Assembly: GCA_964291265.2 (NCBI GenBank)
Contig: OZ219747.1
Coordinates: forward strand, 1,184,001-1,248,000
DNA from: Alphaproteobacteria bacterium
GTDB lineage: Bacteria > Pseudomonadota > Alphaproteobacteria > SP197
DNA length: 64,000 nt
Direction: 5' to 3'
The notes below the pieces were generated by a model. That model was not told the DNA's origin and ran no database searches. It was given only the letters and a program-made list of their open reading frames with translations. How positions within the stretch are numbered: the first letter of the stretch is position 1; each line of letters begins with the position of its first letter. Position numbers and translations under genes: made by a program. This document shows positions 50,976 through 59,488 of this stretch, one piece after another.

Positions 50976-51269
50976 GGCCCATACCAAGCGGCAAGTCGTG
51001 AAGGGAACAGCCCCCTGCACGAAGTCTGGCTTCGGGAGGCTCCTGCTCCGCGGACCATTCTGTCCTCTCCTGAAGACACGTGATGGATCATGTCAGCCCC
51101 TTGTGTACCGGATTTCAACTGTCGGCGGCGATTTAGAACGGCGGGATATTGGCGGAGAACCGCTCTTTTGGGCGCTGATCGTGTGAGTGGGTGACCACGA
51201 CAGGAGAACGTGCGGCATTGGACGAAGGTCCGCCCGGTCTTTGTTTTCTGCCTATTGTTGGATCCCATT

Positions 51270-51601
51270 GGTCTTGCATTGACGTTGACGATGTCGTTCC
51301 GGTCGGCGTTTTCTGGCGTTCGGCGTTTGTGGAACGTGATGTGGGAGGGGAGCTTCAGGCTTTTGCGCGTGGTTTCGTTCTGGCGTTTTCCGGCCTCGTC
51401 GTGGTTCGTCGGGCGGGACGATCTCGAGGCTGGAGAGCTGACGGTTTCTGTTGCGCTGGGCGAAGAGGCTGCGTGCGTTGCGGTTGCGGCGGCGCAGGGT
51501 GCGGCAGGCGTCGAGTGTTTTCGGGCGGATGCTGCGACCTGTGAGCCAGTCCGGCGGCGGATCGGGCGTTGCTGCGGCTCAGCGGCTGCGGCAGTCTCGT
51601 G
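51270..51601 (-). repeat. Decayed, internally deleted copy of the TOPRIM gene (matches ~54510-54640 and ~54890-55082)
   Basis: GTGGGAGGGGAGCTTCA, TCCGGCCTCGTCGTGGT and GTGAGCCAGTCCGG are shared in collinear order. Confidence 0.85.
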
Positions 51602-51902
51602 ATGTGGTGTCGTTTGGACGGCCCGGGGGTTTCCCGGGGAGGCTGAGAGGCGCGTCGGGGTGAGACGTTCTCATTCCTGGATGGTAACGCGTGACCGCGT
51701 TCAAGGGTCTTGCGAGATTACGTGTCCCTTCCGTAGCCGCGTGGCGGTTCGATGTCCTCGAGAGCCTCGATGTCGGCATCGGCGACGATCTGCAGGCGTT
51801 CTCCGTAAGGCGTGTCACGGAGTAACTGCCCAGGTCTGATTTTGCCGAGTCCTGACGGGAGGTGGATTGATGGCTCCGGTCTGATGACGCCGAGGAGGGA
51901 TG

Positions 51903-53444
51903 TCAGAAGCGCAGTTTCGGGATCAGCTGTATGGGATCGGGGTGGGCCAGTGTTTCGAGGACATTCCAGCCCTGTTTTCGGGCGATGGAGATGACGGATC
52001 GCAGCTTGGCGAAGTCCCATGCGCCCTGCATGGATCGGAAGCCGCCCGAGATTTTCTGGCGCAGCTTGCTCATGCGGAAGTCTTGCTCGGCCTGGTTGTT
52101 GGAGAACGGGACTTGCGGGTTGGTGAGGAAGCGCAGGCAGCCGTCCTTGTGCTTCTGAAGGCGAAGCGCGAGGTTGTGGCCGATGCGGCGTTTTCGTCGT
52201 CCGCGCTTTCCGGGCTGGAGCGGCGGCCTCTGTTCGTGGGAAGCGATGGCCTGCTCGAGGATCCTGTCCCAGGCTTGCGAGATGCGGGCGAGGAGTGAAG
52301 CGGGGATGTCGCGGTCGTTCTTGCGGGCGAAGCGGGCGGCTCTGTTGGCACGGATGAGGAGCCTGTGCATGGCGGTGGCCCAGTCTTCCTTCTCGATCTC
52401 GATCAGAGCCTGGAGTTCGCGCAGGTGATGGGCGTTGCAGGCACCGTGGCGCACGCCCTCGAGAGTGAAGTAAGTGGCCAAGTCGTCATGGATGACGATG
52501 CCGTTGAGCGTCTCGTCGATGTGTTTGCGGCCGGTGGCGATGCGCAGGATGGTGAGCAAGGGGGTGCACAGCACATGGAGCCAGTGGGTCTGGCCGTTGA
52601 TGCGGATGCCGGTCTCGTCGAGGTGTTTGACCGGTGCTTGGGTGCGGATGATCTGCGCGACATGATCGAGGAAGCTCTCGAAGCGCCGGGCGGTGCGCCT
52701 GCCCATGGCGGCGATGGTGGCGGTTGAGATCCTGACGGCGAAGAGGTCGCTCATGACCTCGGCGACGCGCTTCTCGGGAATGAACTGGGCGTGCAACAGG
52801 TAGGTCACCCAGGCGGTGATGCGCGGCCCGTACTGGACCGGGGCGCTCACGCCGTGCGGGAAGGCGGCTGTTGTCACAGCGCCGCAGGCGGCGCAGAGAC
52901 AGCGATGGGCGCGATGTTCGGTGACCTCGAGGGGCTGCGGCTCGGGCATGTCGAAGACCTGCCGACAGACGGGTTCTGCGTGACGGTCATCATCCGACAG
53001 CGGTGCGCCGCAGCCCTTACAGGCAGACGGAGCATGATCGACGACATGGTCCGGGTTCTCGGCCTGCTTCAGGGTGACTCCCTCGTGGCCGCGCTGACCG
53101 CCACTGGGCCTGTCGGACTTGCCGCGCTGGCTCCGGGTGCGCTTCTGTCGGTTTCCGCTCTTCTTCTTCGGACCGTCGCTGGCCGGTGGCTTGGAGCTGG
53201 TGGAGCTGTCGAGCGCGGCGCTGCGCTCGAGTGCGTCAATCCGTTCGCGCAAGCCGGTGTTCTCCCGCTCCAGCGCCTCGATCTCCCCGACCAGCGCCTC
53301 ACTCAGGCGCAACATCCCCTGGCCCCAATCCCGGAGGGCCTTGACGGCAGTCACGGCGAAGGAGTGTGGACTGAACAGGTCCTGAAGGCCCACGAAGGCC
53401 TCGTCATGGGCGGCGATGTCCTCGCGCCAGCGCGAGACGGTCAC
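51903..53444 (-). CDS. IS66 family transposase (TnpC-like; no tnpA/tnpB helper genes seen)
   Basis: DSSTSSKPPASD, GGQRGHEG, CKGC...CAAC, HLDETG, CNAHHLREL, PFSNNQAEQDFR, KISGGFRS; GTG 53444 overlaps the MTase stop. Confidence 0.92.
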   Translation of the reverse strand: MTVSRWREDIAAHDEAFVGLQDLFSPHSFAVTAVKALRDWGQGMLRLSEALVGEIEALERENTGLRERIDALERSAALDSSTSSKPPASDGPKKKSGNRQKRTRSQRGKSDRPSGGQRGHEGVTLKQAENPDHVVDHAPSACKGCGAPLSDDDRHAEPVCRQVFDMPEPQPLEVTEHRAHRCLCAACGAVTTAAFPHGVSAPVQYGPRITAWVTYLLHAQFIPEKRVAEVMSDLFAVRISTATIAAMGRRTARRFESFLDHVAQIIRTQAPVKHLDETGIRINGQTHWLHVLCTPLLTILRIATGRKHIDETLNGIVIHDDLATYFTLEGVRHGACNAHHLRELQALIEIEKEDWATAMHRLLIRANRAARFARKNDRDIPASLLARISQAWDRILEQAIASHEQRPPLQPGKRGRRKRRIGHNLALRLQKHKDGCLRFLTNPQVPFSNNQAEQDFRMSKLRQKISGGFRSMQGAWDFAKLRSVISIARKQGWNVLETLAHPDPIQLIPKLRF

Positions 53445-54110
53445 GAACCCTCCCCGGCCTCGACGGCCATGATCGCCGCCAGCACGGCCAGACGTTCCCC
53501 CGGCGGCATGGCCTCGTAGCGCCGCCCCCAGTTGGCCGCCTTGCGCTTGATGCACTGGCGGGCGGTGAAGTTCCGCCCCGCGTAGCGCGACCAGTGCACC
53601 CGGTCGGGAGCAAAGTTGAACCATACCACCTCGGTCCGCACCTGGGCCTGGGTCGTCACCTGCAGCGCCACCCGGCGCCAGCCCGCCAGAAGATCGTCAT
53701 AGAGCGCTTCACGGGTGGCCCGAGACCATCACCTGGCAGGGCAGGCCCTTGAGCAGTTCAAGGAGCGCAACATGGTCCGCCTCCTCGTACTCGAAGCGGT
53801 AGCGCCGCGACGAACGCCGCGTCGCGTGCAGATAGGGCGGATCGCTGTAGACCAGCTCCGGACCCAGAAACGGGAACGAAGCCAGGAAGGAGTGAGCACA
53901 GTCGTGCACCAACTCCACCGGATAAGCGCACTCAAAGGCCTCAAGCGCACGCTCATCACGGTCAATCCCGATCGAGCGCTCCGACGCAGCCTTGCGCTTC
54001 ATCAGCGCTCCGCCCCCCAGATGGCTCTCGATATAGACAGAGTGCGGCGGCATCAGCGCAATCAGCGCCTGGCACAAACCCGGCGTCGCCTTCGATCCGA
54101 AGTACCCCAA
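53441..54110 (-). pseudogene. D12-class N6-adenine DNA methyltransferase (Dam-like), broken near 53709
   Basis: YFGSK, YIESHLGGG, YSDPPY, VMVSG; after CCG-TGA-A the next frame continues ALYDDLLAGWRR...RTEVVWFNF. Confidence 0.85.
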
Positions 54111-54138
54111 CGGCCGCCCCCCTCATGACAGAGGGCAA

Positions 54139-54167
54139 CTCATAGGCTCACCGGCCTAGTAAGTCAA
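54139..54167 (-). promoter_or_regulatory. Sigma70-like promoter inside the IS66 end, facing the MTase-transposase pair
   Basis: TTGACT-17 bp-TATGAG on the minus strand, ~30 bp upstream of the MTase TTG start. Confidence 0.55.
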
Positions 54168-54484
54168 GACGCGCAGAATCAACAAAGCGACGACACCAAA
54201 ACCGCACCCAACGCAACCAACGTCAACACAGACTCAGACCTGGCGGGGTACCTGGGCAGTTACGTCACGGAGGCTTTCGGGGATGCTGTCGAGGTGGTCA
54301 CGCCATTCGTCCTGCAGGGCGCGCAGTTCGGCCACGGCGTCGTTCCAGCGTTGCGGTCGCGAGCGCCGGTCACGGTGCTTTGGGGTGTGGACGGGAGGGA
54401 TGCCGGCCTTGCGCCGTTCCCGGTATCGCCGCTGCTTTTCGGCGGGCGTGAGGGGCATGAGTGGTCTCCTTGTGACGGACGTGG

Positions 54485-55378
54485 TCATGATCTCGCTTGT
54501 GGTTCTTTGGTCCTGGCGTTGACGACGTCGTTCCAGTCGGCGTTTTCCGGCGGTCTGCGTCTGTGGAACGAGACGTGGGAGGGGAGCTTCATCTTTTTGC
54601 GCAGGGTTTCGGCCTGTCGCTCTCCGGCCTCGTCGTGGTCCTGGGCGAGGACGATGGTCCTGACGTTGGGCAGGCTGCTTGCGGCGAGGCTGATCTGTTC
54701 GTGCTGTCTTCGCGAGGGTGCCCCGGCGGTGGAGAGGAAGGCGTGGCTGGGGGGACATTGGTCGATCTGGGCCAGGCTGAGGGCGTCGACGGCGCTTTCG
54801 GTGATGACGAGGGCCTCGAGGTCCGCGGCGGTTCCGGCGCGGACGGCGAACAGGCTTCGGGTTCCACCGGTGGCGAAGCGTTTCGGTCCGTCGGGGGGAC
54901 CGATCTCGAAGCCGGTGAGCTTTCGCTTCCTGTTGCGATGGGCGAAGAGGACGCGTCCGTTGTGGTCGCGGCGGACCAGGGGGCGGCAGGTGTCGAGGGT
55001 CTCCGGGAGGATGCCGCGCCCGGTGAGCCAGTCCGGGGCCGCATCGGGCGTTGCCGCGGCCCAGAGGCTGCGGAAGTCGCGTGGCGCGGCGTCGGGTGCT
55101 GCGAAGCGGGTGCAGATGTCGGCGAAGGCCAGTCCGCGGTTGAGCATGAAGTCGATGACGGTTCCGTTGTCTTCATCGTTCTGGGTGTTGAAGTAGACCC
55201 AGTGTCCGTTGTTGAGGCACTTCGTGACGAGCTTCGGCAGGCCGGGTGCGCACAGGACGGGGTTGGCGCGTGTCGAGGCCTGTTCGTCGCGGACGTATCC
55301 CCAGTCGGCGGCGATGCGTTCGAACGGCATGCGCTTGACGGCGTCGAAGTCGACGCGGCGGGGTTTATCGGGTTTCAC
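54485..55378 (-). CDS. TOPRIM-domain (DUF3991-like/primase-like) protein
   Basis: GTVIDF N-terminal motif; LVITESAVDALS (catalytic E) and LAQDHDEAG (DxD); start overlaps the istB 3' end. Confidence 0.82.
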   Translation of the reverse strand: MKPDKPRRVDFDAVKRMPFERIAADWGYVRDEQASTRANPVLCAPGLPKLVTKCLNNGHWVYFNTQNDEDNGTVIDFMLNRGLAFADICTRFAAPDAAPRDFRSLWAAATPDAAPDWLTGRGILPETLDTCRPLVRRDHNGRVLFAHRNRKRKLTGFEIGPPDGPKRFATGGTRSLFAVRAGTAADLEALVITESAVDALSLAQIDQCPPSHAFLSTAGAPSRRQHEQISLAASSLPNVRTIVLAQDHDEAGERQAETLRKKMKLPSHVSFHRRRPPENADWNDVVNARTKEPQARS

Positions 55379-56066
55379 GCCTGAGCCGCCAGGAGTCGCT
55401 GTCGATGGAGATGAGGGTTGCGTCGTGCATGAGCCGGTCGACGGTGCCGGCGATGCCGGAGGCGCTGGGGAAGACGCGGTCCCACTGGGCGAAGGCGAGG
55501 CTTGTCGTGACCATGGTCGAGCGGCGCTGATAGCGCCGCGAGACGATGGCGTAGAGGATGTCGGCATGGTGGCTTTCGAGGGTCACGTAGCCGATTTCGT
55601 CGAGGATGAGCAGGCGGGGCCTGGCGAGGATCGCGAGGCGGCGGCGCAGCTCGCTGCGCGAGACGGTCTCGGCGAGTGCCTCGAGCAGTTCCGGCGCCTT
55701 CTCGAAGCGGACGGTGTGGCCGTGCAGCAGGGCCTGGTGCGCCACGTTGGCGGCGATCATGGTCTTTCCGGTGCCCTGCCCGCCGACGAGCACGGCGTTG
55801 TCCGCACGGTCGACGAAGCCGAGGCCGAGGAGCGCTTCGACATGAGCCCGGCTGATGTCGCGCGGCCATGTCCAGTCGAAGTCCGCCAGGGGCTTGAAGG
55901 CGGGCAGCCGCGCCGCGGCGCGGCGGCGCTCGTGGCTGCGGGCCCTGCGGGCCTGTTCCTCGCCGCTGACCACCTCCTCGATCCATGCGGTCCCGGCGAC
56001 CTCGTCCCAGCGTTCGACGAGCCCGTGGAGGCCGAGCGCCCGGGCACGCTCCCTGAGCTCGCTCAT
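55365..56066 (-). CDS. istB: IS21-family helper ATPase
   Basis: DFDWTWP, Walker A GGQGTGKT, Walker B LLILDEIGY, VDRLMH, SWR; ATGA overlap with istA. Confidence 0.9.
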   Translation of the reverse strand: MSELRERARALGLHGLVERWDEVAGTAWIEEVVSGEEQARRARSHERRRAAARLPAFKPLADFDWTWPRDISRAHVEALLGLGFVDRADNAVLVGGQGTGKTMIAANVAHQALLHGHTVRFEKAPELLEALAETVSRSELRRRLAILARPRLLILDEIGYVTLESHHADILYAIVSRRYQRRSTMVTTSLAFAQWDRVFPSASGIAGTVDRLMHDATLISIDSDSWRLRRETR

Positions 56067-57556
56067 GTCTTGTTCCTGGCGCTGGCTTCGGGCCTGTCGT
56101 AGGCGTCGAGAGCGGTCCCCCGCGGCGTCGTGCCACGGCCGCCGCGGCCGTCGTCGGCGATGCTGAGGGGCGGCAGGCCCTGCTCCCGGCGGCGCTCTTC
56201 GATGATGACGCGCACGGTTTCGGGGTGGCACGAGCCGCGCTCCAGCGCCGTGGCGACAGCCCGGTCGAGAGCGTCGGCGCCGTGCGCGTTGAGAAGCGTC
56301 TCCAGCATCCGGGCGCAGGAGGCCACGTTGCGCCCGTTGGTCCCGGCGCGCGCCAGCATCTCCTCGGCCCGCGGCACGGTGCGCAGGACCCGGTCGCGGA
56401 CGCTCATGGAGCGGGCCCGCCGCTTGCCCGCGGCGATCGCCCTGGCATGCTCCGGATCGGTGACGGCCTGCTTCCTGTCGTAGGAGCGTCGGTGGCGCGC
56501 GACCTCGTCGGCGCCGTCGAGGATGCGAACCTCGTCGCGGTCGGCGACCAGCGTCAGCAGGGCCTTGGAGAAGCTACCCGGAACGCTGTAGTCGTTGGTG
56601 TCGAAGCGGGCGTGGCAGGTCTTGTCGATGCGCACCGGGCGGACCTCGTGATGCGGGAAGGGATCGGCGGGAAGGACGATCAGGTGCTCCCTCTCCCGGG
56701 CGAAGGCGTCCCGCACCAGGAGACTGTCGTCGTCCGGCCAGGGCCGCTCCGCGGCGGCGCCGAAGCACCACTCCCGAACCGCGGCGTTGAGCTCGCCGAG
56801 CGGGACCGTGATGTCGCGCCCGGCGAAGAACCCGGTGCGCGCGAAGCGCACACGGCGTTCCACGCGGCCCTTCTCCTGCGGGCTCCTGGGCCAGGCGGCG
56901 CTCGGTTCGAAGGCATAGTGGGCCGCGAGGCCGAGCAGCATCGGATGATAGGTGACCGCCTTGCCGCGGCGCGTCACCACGGCACTCTTCAGGTTGTCGT
57001 ACAGAAGCCTCCGCGGCACACCCCCGAATGCCGCGAAAGCCTCGACATGGCCTTGCAGGAAGCTGGCCATCCGCGCGTCGTGGAACAGGCTCAGGACAGT
57101 CTGGCGCGAGTAGCTGAGGGTGACGAGAAGCCCCATGAGCCTGCGCTCCGCCCGGCCAATGCGGACCTTCCCGAACTCGGCCCAGTCAACCTGCGCCTGC
57201 TCGCCCGGAAGGAAGCTCAGCCGCAGCGACGGCTCGGGCCTCTTCACCGGCCTCAGCCCGAGGCGGCGCAGGTCGTGACGGAAGTGATCCTCGCCGCCGC
57301 GGTAGCCCAGGGCCACGACCTGTCGCCAGAGCGTGCTGGCCGGAAGGTCCGGCGACGCCTCAAGACGCTCCCCGAGGAAGGCAACGAAGGGGTCGATGAG
57401 CTTGGCCCGCGGCCGCCGCTCCTGCCCCGACGCCTTGAGCGCCCGCGTCACCGTGCCGTGGTGCACGCCGAGATGCCGGGCAATCGTCCCCACAGCCCAG
57501 CCCTCGGCCCGCGACAGCCGCACGATCGTCGCCCGCGTGTCCTCGTCGATCGCCAT
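56063..57556 (-). CDS. istA: IS21-family DDE transposase
   Basis: HTH TIARHLGVHHGTV, PGEQAQVDW, LSYSR, LYDNLKSAV, EKGRVER, FDTNDYSVP. Confidence 0.92.
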   Translation of the reverse strand: MAIDEDTRATIVRLSRAEGWAVGTIARHLGVHHGTVTRALKASGQERRPRAKLIDPFVAFLGERLEASPDLPASTLWRQVVALGYRGGEDHFRHDLRRLGLRPVKRPEPSLRLSFLPGEQAQVDWAEFGKVRIGRAERRLMGLLVTLSYSRQTVLSLFHDARMASFLQGHVEAFAAFGGVPRRLLYDNLKSAVVTRRGKAVTYHPMLLGLAAHYAFEPSAAWPRSPQEKGRVERRVRFARTGFFAGRDITVPLGELNAAVREWCFGAAAERPWPDDDSLLVRDAFAREREHLIVLPADPFPHHEVRPVRIDKTCHARFDTNDYSVPGSFSKALLTLVADRDEVRILDGADEVARHRRSYDRKQAVTDPEHARAIAAGKRRARSMSVRDRVLRTVPRAEEMLARAGTNGRNVASCARMLETLLNAHGADALDRAVATALERGSCHPETVRVIIEERRREQGLPPLSIADDGRGGRGTTPRGTALDAYDRPEASARNKT

Positions 57557-57588
57557 GAACTCCCTCCCTTTGGTTCCTCAACGCCGCA

Positions 57589-58065
57589 TCACAGGTCCCT
57601 CAGCACCACATGCGTCACGACCCGTCCGCACCGGGCGCACCGAAGCGGCGATTCGCGCCGCTCTCGCGCCTTCACAACCGCAGGTAGGGAGGTCGGCAGC
57701 AGTCGGGAAGGGTGGTCCGTAACGATTTCTTCAGAACCGGCGTCTCCAGACACCGCCGGAACGTCGCCAAGCAGCACCACAGCAGACGTCTGCGTGTCCA
57801 TGATCTCGGCAACCATCGCCGCCCTGGCCTTCAACGCACGCGCCTCCTCCGCCTTGCGGAGCCGGTAACGCCGCTGGCGGTGACGGCCCGTCTCACGGCC
57901 CTTCAGCGTGCTCTGGTAGCGACGACGCGACGCGCGGCGCCGCTCGATCCGGGACCGCTCCCTGCACTCCTTGGAGCAATACACATGCCCCCGGTCACAC
58001 GACCGGCAGAGAACAACCTGCCGCTGACACCGCCTGCAGTTGAACAGTCGTCCTGTCGTGCACAC
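57589..58065 (-). CDS. Cys-rich Zn-finger/basic hypothetical protein upstream of istA
   Basis: CRRC..VVLCRSCDRGHVYCSKEC, Arg-rich helix, C-terminal CARCG; start approximate. Confidence 0.75.
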   Translation of the reverse strand: MCTTGRLFNCRRCQRQVVLCRSCDRGHVYCSKECRERSRIERRRASRRRYQSTLKGRETGRHRQRRYRLRKAEEARALKARAAMVAEIMDTQTSAVVLLGDVPAVSGDAGSEEIVTDHPSRLLPTSLPAVVKARERRESPLRCARCGRVVTHVVLRDL

Positions 58066-58383
58066 CGTCCGTCTCGAGAGCGGGGGTGGACCCGGACGCA
58101 AAATGGCTCGACAATACACGGGAGTTCGGTCCCCCGTGACCGGCTCGTCCGGGTGCTGCGCCGGGGGGCGTCACAACTCCGCCCGGCATCGCATCGCTCT
58201 TTCTCTTGATGCCGATCTAGCATCCACCCGGGGCGGCGGCAAAGACGCCGCCCCGGGACCGGACAACGCGACCCGCCCACAGGGAAGACAAACAATCCCG
58301 CGAGTGCCTCGGAACCGGAACCCTCCCGGCAACCGTCACCAAGACCGAAGCAGAGGTCGACGGAACCCGAACCGGACCAAAAC

Positions 58384-58500
58384 GACAATAGGAAAAGACG
58401 GCGGCGCTCGGGGAGACAACCAGCCGAACACTCAAACCACGACAACAGGACGTGACAATAGGACCTGACAACAGGGAAGAAACACGACCCTGACAAAGCG
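58384..58500. repeat. Subterminal short direct repeats GACAAYAGG
   Basis: Copies at 58384, 58441, 58454 and 58467 (last three have a 13-bp period); weaker copies at 58415 and 58492. Confidence 0.7.
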
Positions 58501-59488
58501 CGGCAAATCGCCGAAATCCCGCCGTTCTATGCAGCCATCAACATTTCAACCATGCATCGCAATTCGATGGCGGATCGGCACAGGCCCGGTCCAAGCTACT
58601 TCTCGCGTTCCGGAAGGAAACCCAATGGTCTCGTCAACTCATGGTGTTGGTGGGAATTCCGGGGCGTGTTGCCGTGTGACGGCCCGATCGGCATCAATGC
58701 CAGACGTCCGCGTCAGCGGTCGGCATGTGGGAGACATGCAGGTGGCGCACCTTGATCGCATGAAGTCGTGGCCCTGAGCCTACGGATGACGTCATCAATC
58801 TGCTCCTGACACTCTGCTAGACAGAGCTCTGGACGCCGGCCAGGCCCCTCGCCGATTCCTGCATCGCCCTGGTGTCTCTGGCCGCCGTTCATCGCCGGGA
58901 TGACAACTGTTTCGGTCTGTCGGCGCGGGATTTCCGCCGCATTGCGACGAATGACCGGGATGTCATCCGGAGTCACCATTCCGGCGACCATGACCGCACC
59001 GGTCTCCAACAGGGTCTCAACCTGATCCTGTCCTTTGATCGTCCTAGCGAACTGGTCATACAAGGCCGGTGAACCCGGATCCATCGGGCCAACTCGCTGT
59101 TCATTCTTGGGCGGATCGCCGCCCGACGAGATGGAACGGGCCAGTCAACTGGGCGAAGTCCGTCAGGGCCACGTTGCTGCGGTCGCATTCCAGCGTTCCC
59201 GCGCCCGCAGCCATGGCATGCATGTTGCCGACACAGGCGTGACGGACCGTCACGCCATGGCTGGCGGGTGGCGCGATGATCTCGATCCGGAAATGCCTGA
59301 AGCCTGTTGTCAAGGCAGCGGGACGCGCCATCGCGCTCTTCGTGGTCGATGACAGGATCCATGCCACGGATTGCTGCCGTTCCCACATGCCTGTCAGGTC
59401 AGGGCTCTTCTTTTGTCCGGTTTCGTCCGATGAAGGGGCGTTGTAGGTAGATCTGGAGGTCCATTCGGGACAGGATTTCGTTGTCGAT

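Follow-up and report, generated by a model that had tools for sequence, protein, structure and literature searches.

The element at 51822-54263 and its copies

The 64,000-nucleotide window (assembly GCA_964291265.2, contig OZ219747.1, positions 1,184,001 to 1,248,000, from an alphaproteobacterium) contains a 2,442-bp insertion sequence (IS) of the IS66 family at 51822-54263. Upstream of its transposase gene lies a methylase-like gene related to upf31 of IncP-1beta plasmids; this gene, with its promoter and a palindrome inside that promoter, is referred to here as the cassette. The features of the element, in window coordinates, were as follows.

51814..51821, unstranded: target-site duplication, left copy, 8 bp; empty sites known
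51822..51835, unstranded: right terminal inverted repeat, 14 bp, 3' of the transposase gene
51903..53444, minus strand: IS66-family transposase gene, single open reading frame (ORF), ISBst12-like; 513 aa, GTG start, frame intact
53441..53707, minus strand: Upf31-like gene, 3' part; 88 codons, the helical C-terminal domain among them, out of frame
53449..53453, minus strand: GGAGG, putative ribosome-binding site of the transposase gene, within the 3' end of the methylase-like gene
53709..54110, minus strand: Upf31-like gene, 5' part; TTG start, 133 codons with the S-adenosylmethionine (SAM)-binding motif and DPPY; net +1 frameshift
54117..54124, minus strand: G-rich sequence, putative ribosome-binding site of the Upf31-like gene
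54139..54167, minus strand: predicted sigma-70 promoter; -35 TTGACT at 54162-54167, 17-nt spacer, weak -10 TATGAG at 54139-54144
54142..54159, minus strand: predicted operator TAG-N10-CTA between -35 and -10; binding proposed from Upf31
54250..54263, unstranded: left terminal inverted repeat, 14 bp
54264..54271, unstranded: target-site duplication, right copy, 8-bp direct repeat

The terminal repeats matched at 14 of 14 positions, and both ends start with GTAA and are of the GTAACT type. The perfect repeats and the 8-bp duplication described in the first-pass annotation were thus confirmed. Comparable sets of inverted and direct repeats are expected by chance at about 5e-6 in 5 kb. Empty target sites were found as well: 37 BLAST matches in the genome crossed the junction without the IS66 element. 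The motif count of the element-free junction was 71, because the junction sequence is also present in other repeats. Position 51813 was joined to 54264 in contigs of three of four sequencing runs (a single study, possibly including the source sample). On this evidence, 51822-54263 is a true insertion. Short non-autonomous derivatives with both ends of the window family were also seen, at G000:C2:517829-517960 (132 bp) and 1456114-1456457 (344 bp).

The transposase has a DUF6444 N-terminus, a zinc finger and a DDE core, and scored 280 bits against NF033517 (cut-off, 180) and 136 bits against PF03050. Profile scans of the element's three scanned proteins gave no match to tnpA or tnpB, for which there is no space because the cassette and the transposase gene occupy the whole element; it is therefore not a classical three-ORF IS66. 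In the available text of PMC12898284, the ISBst12 group is defined by a tnpC-type transposase without tnpA/tnpB, with ISDge4 as an example. The window element shares with this group (ISDge4; ISGst1 in NC_010420) one IS66 DDE transposase, GTAACT-type ends and an 8-bp duplication, and its transposase is 37% identical to that of the ISGst1 family. Unlike the single-ORF members of the group, it has a second gene upstream of the transposase gene and is about 0.9 kb longer. The extra length and the second ORF are due to the added promoter-operator-gene cassette, and the element is classed as a variant of the group.

The Upf31-like gene of the window begins at 54110 and ends after codon 133 at the TGA at 53709-53711, with the final 88 codons in another frame. 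The stop of the methylase-like gene overlaps the start of the transposase gene in a GTGA at 53441-53444. This overlap had been read as coupling the two genes; the overlap is real, but the frameshift means that it cannot couple a full-length product to the transposase in this copy. Eight near-full copies of the window family were counted in the genome. Five share the net +1 change and three are intact (222 codons); the intact gene sequence also occurs in a fourth, partial copy. All three copies with an intact transposase gene have a broken Upf31-like gene, and in all three copies with an intact Upf31-like gene the transposase gene is damaged or interrupted.

The window copy and the copy at C2:611342 are identical over all 2,442 bp and have different target duplications, indicating that a broken-gene copy was recently mobile. 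Intact copies may have contributed to its move by supply in trans. An assembly artefact is an unlikely cause of the frameshift, since the same change occurs in five copies, which differ by 0 to 35 bases across 1.6 kb. At the place of the frameshift, contigs from two runs occur both with and without the one-base difference.

A second IS66 family in the genome (2,456 bp; for example L002, G000:C2:763542-765997) has other terminal repeats and an identical layout. Its methylase-like protein is 62% identical to that of the window family and its transposase 33%. Eight full-length copies carry both genes intact, and 12 of its 15 left ends have a partner right end, with perfect duplication of 8 bp. 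A programmed frameshift fusing the methylase-like gene to the transposase was rejected, as no X-XXY-YYZ site lies in the 3' part of the gene in either family; the many differing gene-transposase junction offsets among relatives also argue against it.

A Upf31-like protein and the palindrome in its promoter

Protein analyses were made with the natural intact allele from another copy in the genome. This allele shows 44% identity (E, 8e-52) to Upf31 of pBP136Km across 98% of its length, and its full-length two-domain homology places it in the Upf31 family; the window allele is truncated. Homologues of the intact protein formed 2,752 clusters and were found on conjugative plasmids and P2-like phages. 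In a phylum sample, 2 of 400 genomes gave a distant match, besides the source genome.

Upf31 (upf31.0 of the IncP-1beta plasmids pBP136 and R751; Elg et al. 2025, PMC11997246, available text) is of similar size (about 222 aa), with a methylase-fold N-terminal domain and a helical C-terminal domain. According to the same text, it lowered the activity of a 68-bp promoter fragment from 4.76 to 0.09 XylE units, about 50-fold autorepression, and the repression was lost without the C-terminal domain or when Y180, F185 or W198 was mutated. In the alignment these residues correspond to Y176, F181 and W194 in the intact allele, all of which lie 3' of the window frameshift. Whereas upf31 belongs to a plasmid backbone, the window gene lies inside an IS upstream of a transposase gene, with no KorB partner in view. 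Term matches to transposases or insertion sequences in the available text of the Upf31 paper numbered 0.

The predicted structure of the intact protein is a Rossmann methylase fold (pLDDT 79). The model matched E. coli Dam (TMq 0.56) and DpnM, and RNA and small-molecule methylases about equally well. A sequence search of the PDB returned DpnM at an E value of 0.0024 and two chance TPR-like matches, and the homodimer prediction score was 0.29 (mark, 0.42). Fold, alpha motif order, SAM-binding motif I and DPPY motif IV are common to the window family and the Dam/D12 alpha methyltransferases (E. coli Dam, DpnM). DPPY and the SAM-binding motif were found in 120 of 120 close homologues, and DPPY was retained in 140 of 150 distant ones.

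Dam has roughly 130 residues between the acidic motif II and DPPY. In the window family this gap is only about 40 residues (median, 41 aa in the 90 of 150 representatives with both motifs located), and the DPPY region lies at residue 85-90 versus position 175-180 or so in the Dam-family profile. The target-recognition insert of Dam, some 90 residues long, is absent, and the Dam profile TIGR00571 scored 24 to 26 bits, far below its cut-off of 115. The first 166 and the last approximately 100 bases of the element are free of GATC, as is the promoter region. The first-pass description of a Dam-like methyltransferase with DPPY therefore holds for the motif; the likeness to Dam is weak, and in the window the gene is frameshifted.

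Distant members of the family (P0189, P0206, P0229, P0237, P0253 and others) carry unconserved inserts at the position of the Dam recognition domain. In one frame, these inserts resemble translated ATCG-N10-CGAT repeats at the protein level (10 matches in 8 of 19 inserts, versus 1 to 3 for other spacings); the second frame showed no such excess. A count of operator-like peptides over whole proteins was dropped, since motif II on its own conforms to that pattern.

The upstream regions analysed came from 156 related loci (76 in 16 assemblies and 80 metagenomic, the best matches of larger sets), retrieved using patterns that include DPPY. TTGAC-N18-TA was present in 99 of 103 non-redundant upstream regions. 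The palindrome TAG-N10-CTA lay between the two boxes in 92 of the 103 and was absent from 11; its 10-nt centre was not conserved. Each half-site holds a conserved A on each strand. The left half-site of the window element has a C at a position occupied by A or G in all 92 relatives. The support for the promoter is this conservation in relatives. A generic promoter and terminator scan called nothing at the element, with 0 promoter sites, because the -10 box is the weak TATGAG. The enclosed promoter that had been annotated is thus supported by its conserved geometry and not by the generic scan. The corresponding site of the second family is GTAG-N10-CTAC.

The upf31 promoter is laid out in the same way, a 4+N10+4 palindrome lying between TTGACA and the -10 box. 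The half-site differs, being (A/G)TAG in the window family and ATCG in Upf31, where ATCG-N10-CGAT is perfect in pAKD17 and has one mismatch in pBP136Km. A palindrome of the same geometry in the gene's own promoter is therefore a trait held in common with the Upf31 family. Five and seven ATCG N10 sites were found near two upf31 genes, with no transposase in the unit. Near six other plasmid or phage homologues, ATAG N10 sites numbered 3, 3, 5 and 1 at four and were lacking at two; control spacers of 8, 9, 11 and 12 gave 0 or 1 site around plasmid and phage homologues. Of the 48 TAG-N10-CTA sites in the source genome, 28 belong to IS promoters; the remaining 20 are within the 4 to 30 seen for other spacings. 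Tandem ATAG-N10-CTAT arrays upstream of, inside or away from the gene were seen at L166 (a Lichenicola plasmid), L161 and L163, which suggests a small regulon on the plasmid, comparable to the unexplained repeats of IncP-1beta.

Host Dam controls IS10 and IS50 through methylation. By analogy with IS10, the product could be an active N6-adenine methylase with a very narrow range, modifying the adenines in the half-sites of its own operator. The promoter would then switch with its methylation state, for instance when hemimethylated after replication. The invariance of the SAM-binding motif and DPPY in the close homologues, the modelled match to Dam and DpnM and the conserved A per strand in each half-site are consistent with such a switch. 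However, Upf31 gave no methylation by digestion or by SMRT (single-molecule, real-time) sequencing, at GATC or otherwise, and no kinetic signal in methylase-free E. coli, and the mutations that abolished repression lay in the C-terminal domain, distant from the catalytic motifs (PMC11997246, available text). The fold also resembles RNA and small-molecule methylases to about the same degree as Dam. The switch was kept as an alternative because default SMRT motif calling could miss an 8-bp site that is rare and split by 10 nt, but it is considered unlikely. As for the epigenetic self-regulation first proposed for this element, self-regulation is still the most likely role; Dam control of the IS10/IS50 type is unsupported, given the lack of GATC at the ends, the missing recognition insert and the methylation-negative result for Upf31.

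The cassette is conserved and portable

A downstream ORF of at least 120 aa was present at 145 of the 156 related loci. Among these ORFs, 130 clustered with IS66 transposases in three lineages (five tested, all above the cut-off) and five were IS701-like (four tested, two above and two just below the cut-off); the remaining 10 were interrupted, mis-framed or unclassified. The cassette was located within the ends of elements of three single-ORF IS66 lineages, one classical IS66, an IS701 type and an IS4-like element. The IS701-type elements occur in several copies, with the cassette inside the repeats and 5-bp duplications. The IS4-like element, on a 2,136-bp contig, has 16-bp repeats, the cassette and a GTGA junction. 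The classical IS66 is 3,631 bp long and was found in a same-genus genome (L181-L184, G005), where the cassette precedes tnpC on one strand and tnpA/tnpB lie on the other; of four copies examined, two have 8-bp duplications. At L148:164-2768, the cassette stands ahead of a large ORF within apparent inverted repeats. This ORF has no NCBIfam match and no credible Pfam match and is possibly an unclassified transposase.

At loci of more distant transposases (38 to 53% identity), the cassette gene was absent in eight of eight. At three of these loci (L214, L219 and L226, in two genomes) the 14-bp repeat is identical, 8-bp duplications are present and the methylase gene is missing, a finding that the first-pass annotation had named as speaking against its proposal. 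The window transposase is 48 to 53% identical to those of these cassette-less sisters. Cassettes in several IS families, a classical IS66 with tnpA/tnpB and sisters without the cassette together indicate that the cassette is an add-on. The gene had been thought to take the place of tnpA/tnpB; this was not borne out, since the single-ORF group lacks those genes anyway and the classical IS66 has them beside the cassette.

In a 60-row tree from the related loci, one starred clade (100/99) unites the window protein with partners of IS66 type B and IS701 transposases, and the plasmid rows lie on long branches. Start-stop overlaps recur at new junctions with unrelated transposases. The ratio of nonsynonymous to synonymous substitution rates (dN/dS) of the Upf31-like gene was 0.09 to 0.24 in 13 of 14 pairs, with one pair saturated, and that of the transposases was 0.10 to 0.34. 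Judged by these ratios, the cassette is under purifying selection and is a stable, selected part of the elements, not chance cargo. That it is shared with unrelated transposases fits control at the DNA level better than a transposase-specific partner.

IS1595-family transporter IS (tIS) carry methyltransferase passengers. The window element agrees with the tIS definition in the available text of PMC9330008, in that its terminal repeats enclose an additional gene that is dispensable for transposition: cassette-less sisters and broken-gene copies both carry duplications. Methylases have also been noted within viral Mariner elements (PMC3627910, available text). Unlike tIS passengers, the window gene is co-oriented with and upstream of the transposase gene, has a conserved operator and recurs in unrelated IS families, which points to regulation and not to cargo. 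It is improbable that the gene is a passenger, an orphan methylase that shields element or host DNA from restriction or spreads host methylation. The dispensability of the gene would suit such cargo, as would its homologues on conjugative plasmids and P2-like phages, which often carry protective methylases. On the other side stand the absence of the Dam target-recognition insert, the lack of methylation by the relative Upf31 (PMC11997246, available text), the finding that the sole conserved DNA site is in the gene's own promoter, with the genomic sites outside IS promoters at background, and the fixed place of the gene upstream of unrelated transposases. Protection from restriction and reshaping of the host methylome, both suggested earlier for this element, found no supporting evidence.

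Similarly, there is little likelihood that the cassette was captured mainly as a portable promoter with start signals, its gene being kept only to regulate that promoter and the transposase being little affected. Elements with intact and with broken genes both multiply, the transposase gene has its own ribosome-binding site and cassette-less sisters transpose, as expected in that case. Purifying selection on the protein, however, equals or exceeds that on the transposase in most pairs, and the repeated rise of start-stop overlaps at new junctions also argues against simple promoter capture.

A proposed brake on transposition

The preferred interpretation, with a probability of about 0.55, is that the Upf31-family cassette of this IS66 element is portable and that its intact product, likely bound to the palindrome within the cassette's promoter, would repress both itself and the transposase gene. 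By inference from Upf31, the intact product would bind TAG-N10-CTA between the -35 and -10 boxes, and repression would require the C-terminal domain. Bound there, it would repress the two-gene unit, for which the gene layout suggests a single transcript. A repressor of this kind, acting in trans, would permit a transposase burst when the element enters a naive cell and would damp it as copies build up. As the frameshift removes the C-terminal domain, no repressor would come from the window copy itself; its transposase gene, with its own ribosome-binding site, would leave the element still mobile. Cross-repression by the second family is possible.

Several observations weigh against autorepression by this cassette. 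DPPY is kept in all close and nearly all distant homologues (120/120 and 140/150), for which a pure repressor would have no need. Upf31 differs in half-site and is only 44% identical, the second family retains only one of the three aromatic residues, and the -10 box of the window lineage is weak. There was no clear burst on loss of the gene: the broken allele has five copies versus 12 perfect-duplication insertions of the intact second family, and intact-gene elements reach high copy number in other genomes. Within the window family, perfect duplications flank four of five broken-gene and none of three intact-gene copies, a difference that is not significant (P = 0.07) between copies that are not independent; one intact-gene copy has a duplication matching at 7 of 8 positions.

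A broader proposal is put forward only tentatively. The cassette may be a plug-in module with a methylase fold, swapped among IS66, IS701 and IS4-like elements, that reads and possibly methylates a 4+N10+4 palindrome. It would then act as a shared copy-number-sensing and perhaps epigenetic brake on unrelated elements in one cell, and the window lineage, with its broken gene and altered half-site, would have escaped it by mutation.

Element-encoded repressors of transposase expression include TnpR of Tn3 and InsA of IS1. As proposed here, these are trans-acting products of an element that repress the transposase promoter; unlike them, the Upf31-like protein has an unrelated methylase fold and is encoded on a cassette shared between IS families. 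To our knowledge, self-limitation has been described for few IS families and hardly at all for IS66. No publication on a Upf31-like gene in insertion sequences was found in the literature search, with ISfinder and subscription reviews out of reach. New here are a decaying, still-moving lineage with a broken gene and an altered half-site, cassette-less sisters with identical ends, a classical IS66 with both the cassette and tnpA/tnpB, and the match in geometry to the upf31 promoter.

If the repressor reading is correct, a dedicated repressor cassette across unrelated IS families would be a new layer of control, with cross-talk between elements in one genome. The operator of Upf31 is predicted to be ATCG-N10-CGAT. 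The thousands of proteins annotated as 'DNA adenine methylase' in these 2,752 clusters may be regulators, and the system allows one to ask whether a methylase fold can serve as a sequence-specific transcription factor and why the catalytic motif is retained.

The IS66 element itself lies within a larger mobile element:

51120..58543, minus strand: IS21-like host transposon with istA, istB, a Toprim/DUF3991 gene and small ORFs; a 7-bp direct repeat stands on either side

The IS66 element interrupts a small ORF of this transposon that starts at 54458, and a relative of this ORF lies between the cassette-tnpC pair and tnpA/tnpB of the 3,631-bp classical IS66. Without the insert, the IS21-like transposon is about 5 kb long, and its ends are present 40 and 47 times in the genome. 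Fragments of the Toprim gene are duplicated within it, 51280-51612 being 81 to 85% identical to 54514-54639 and 54885-55094.

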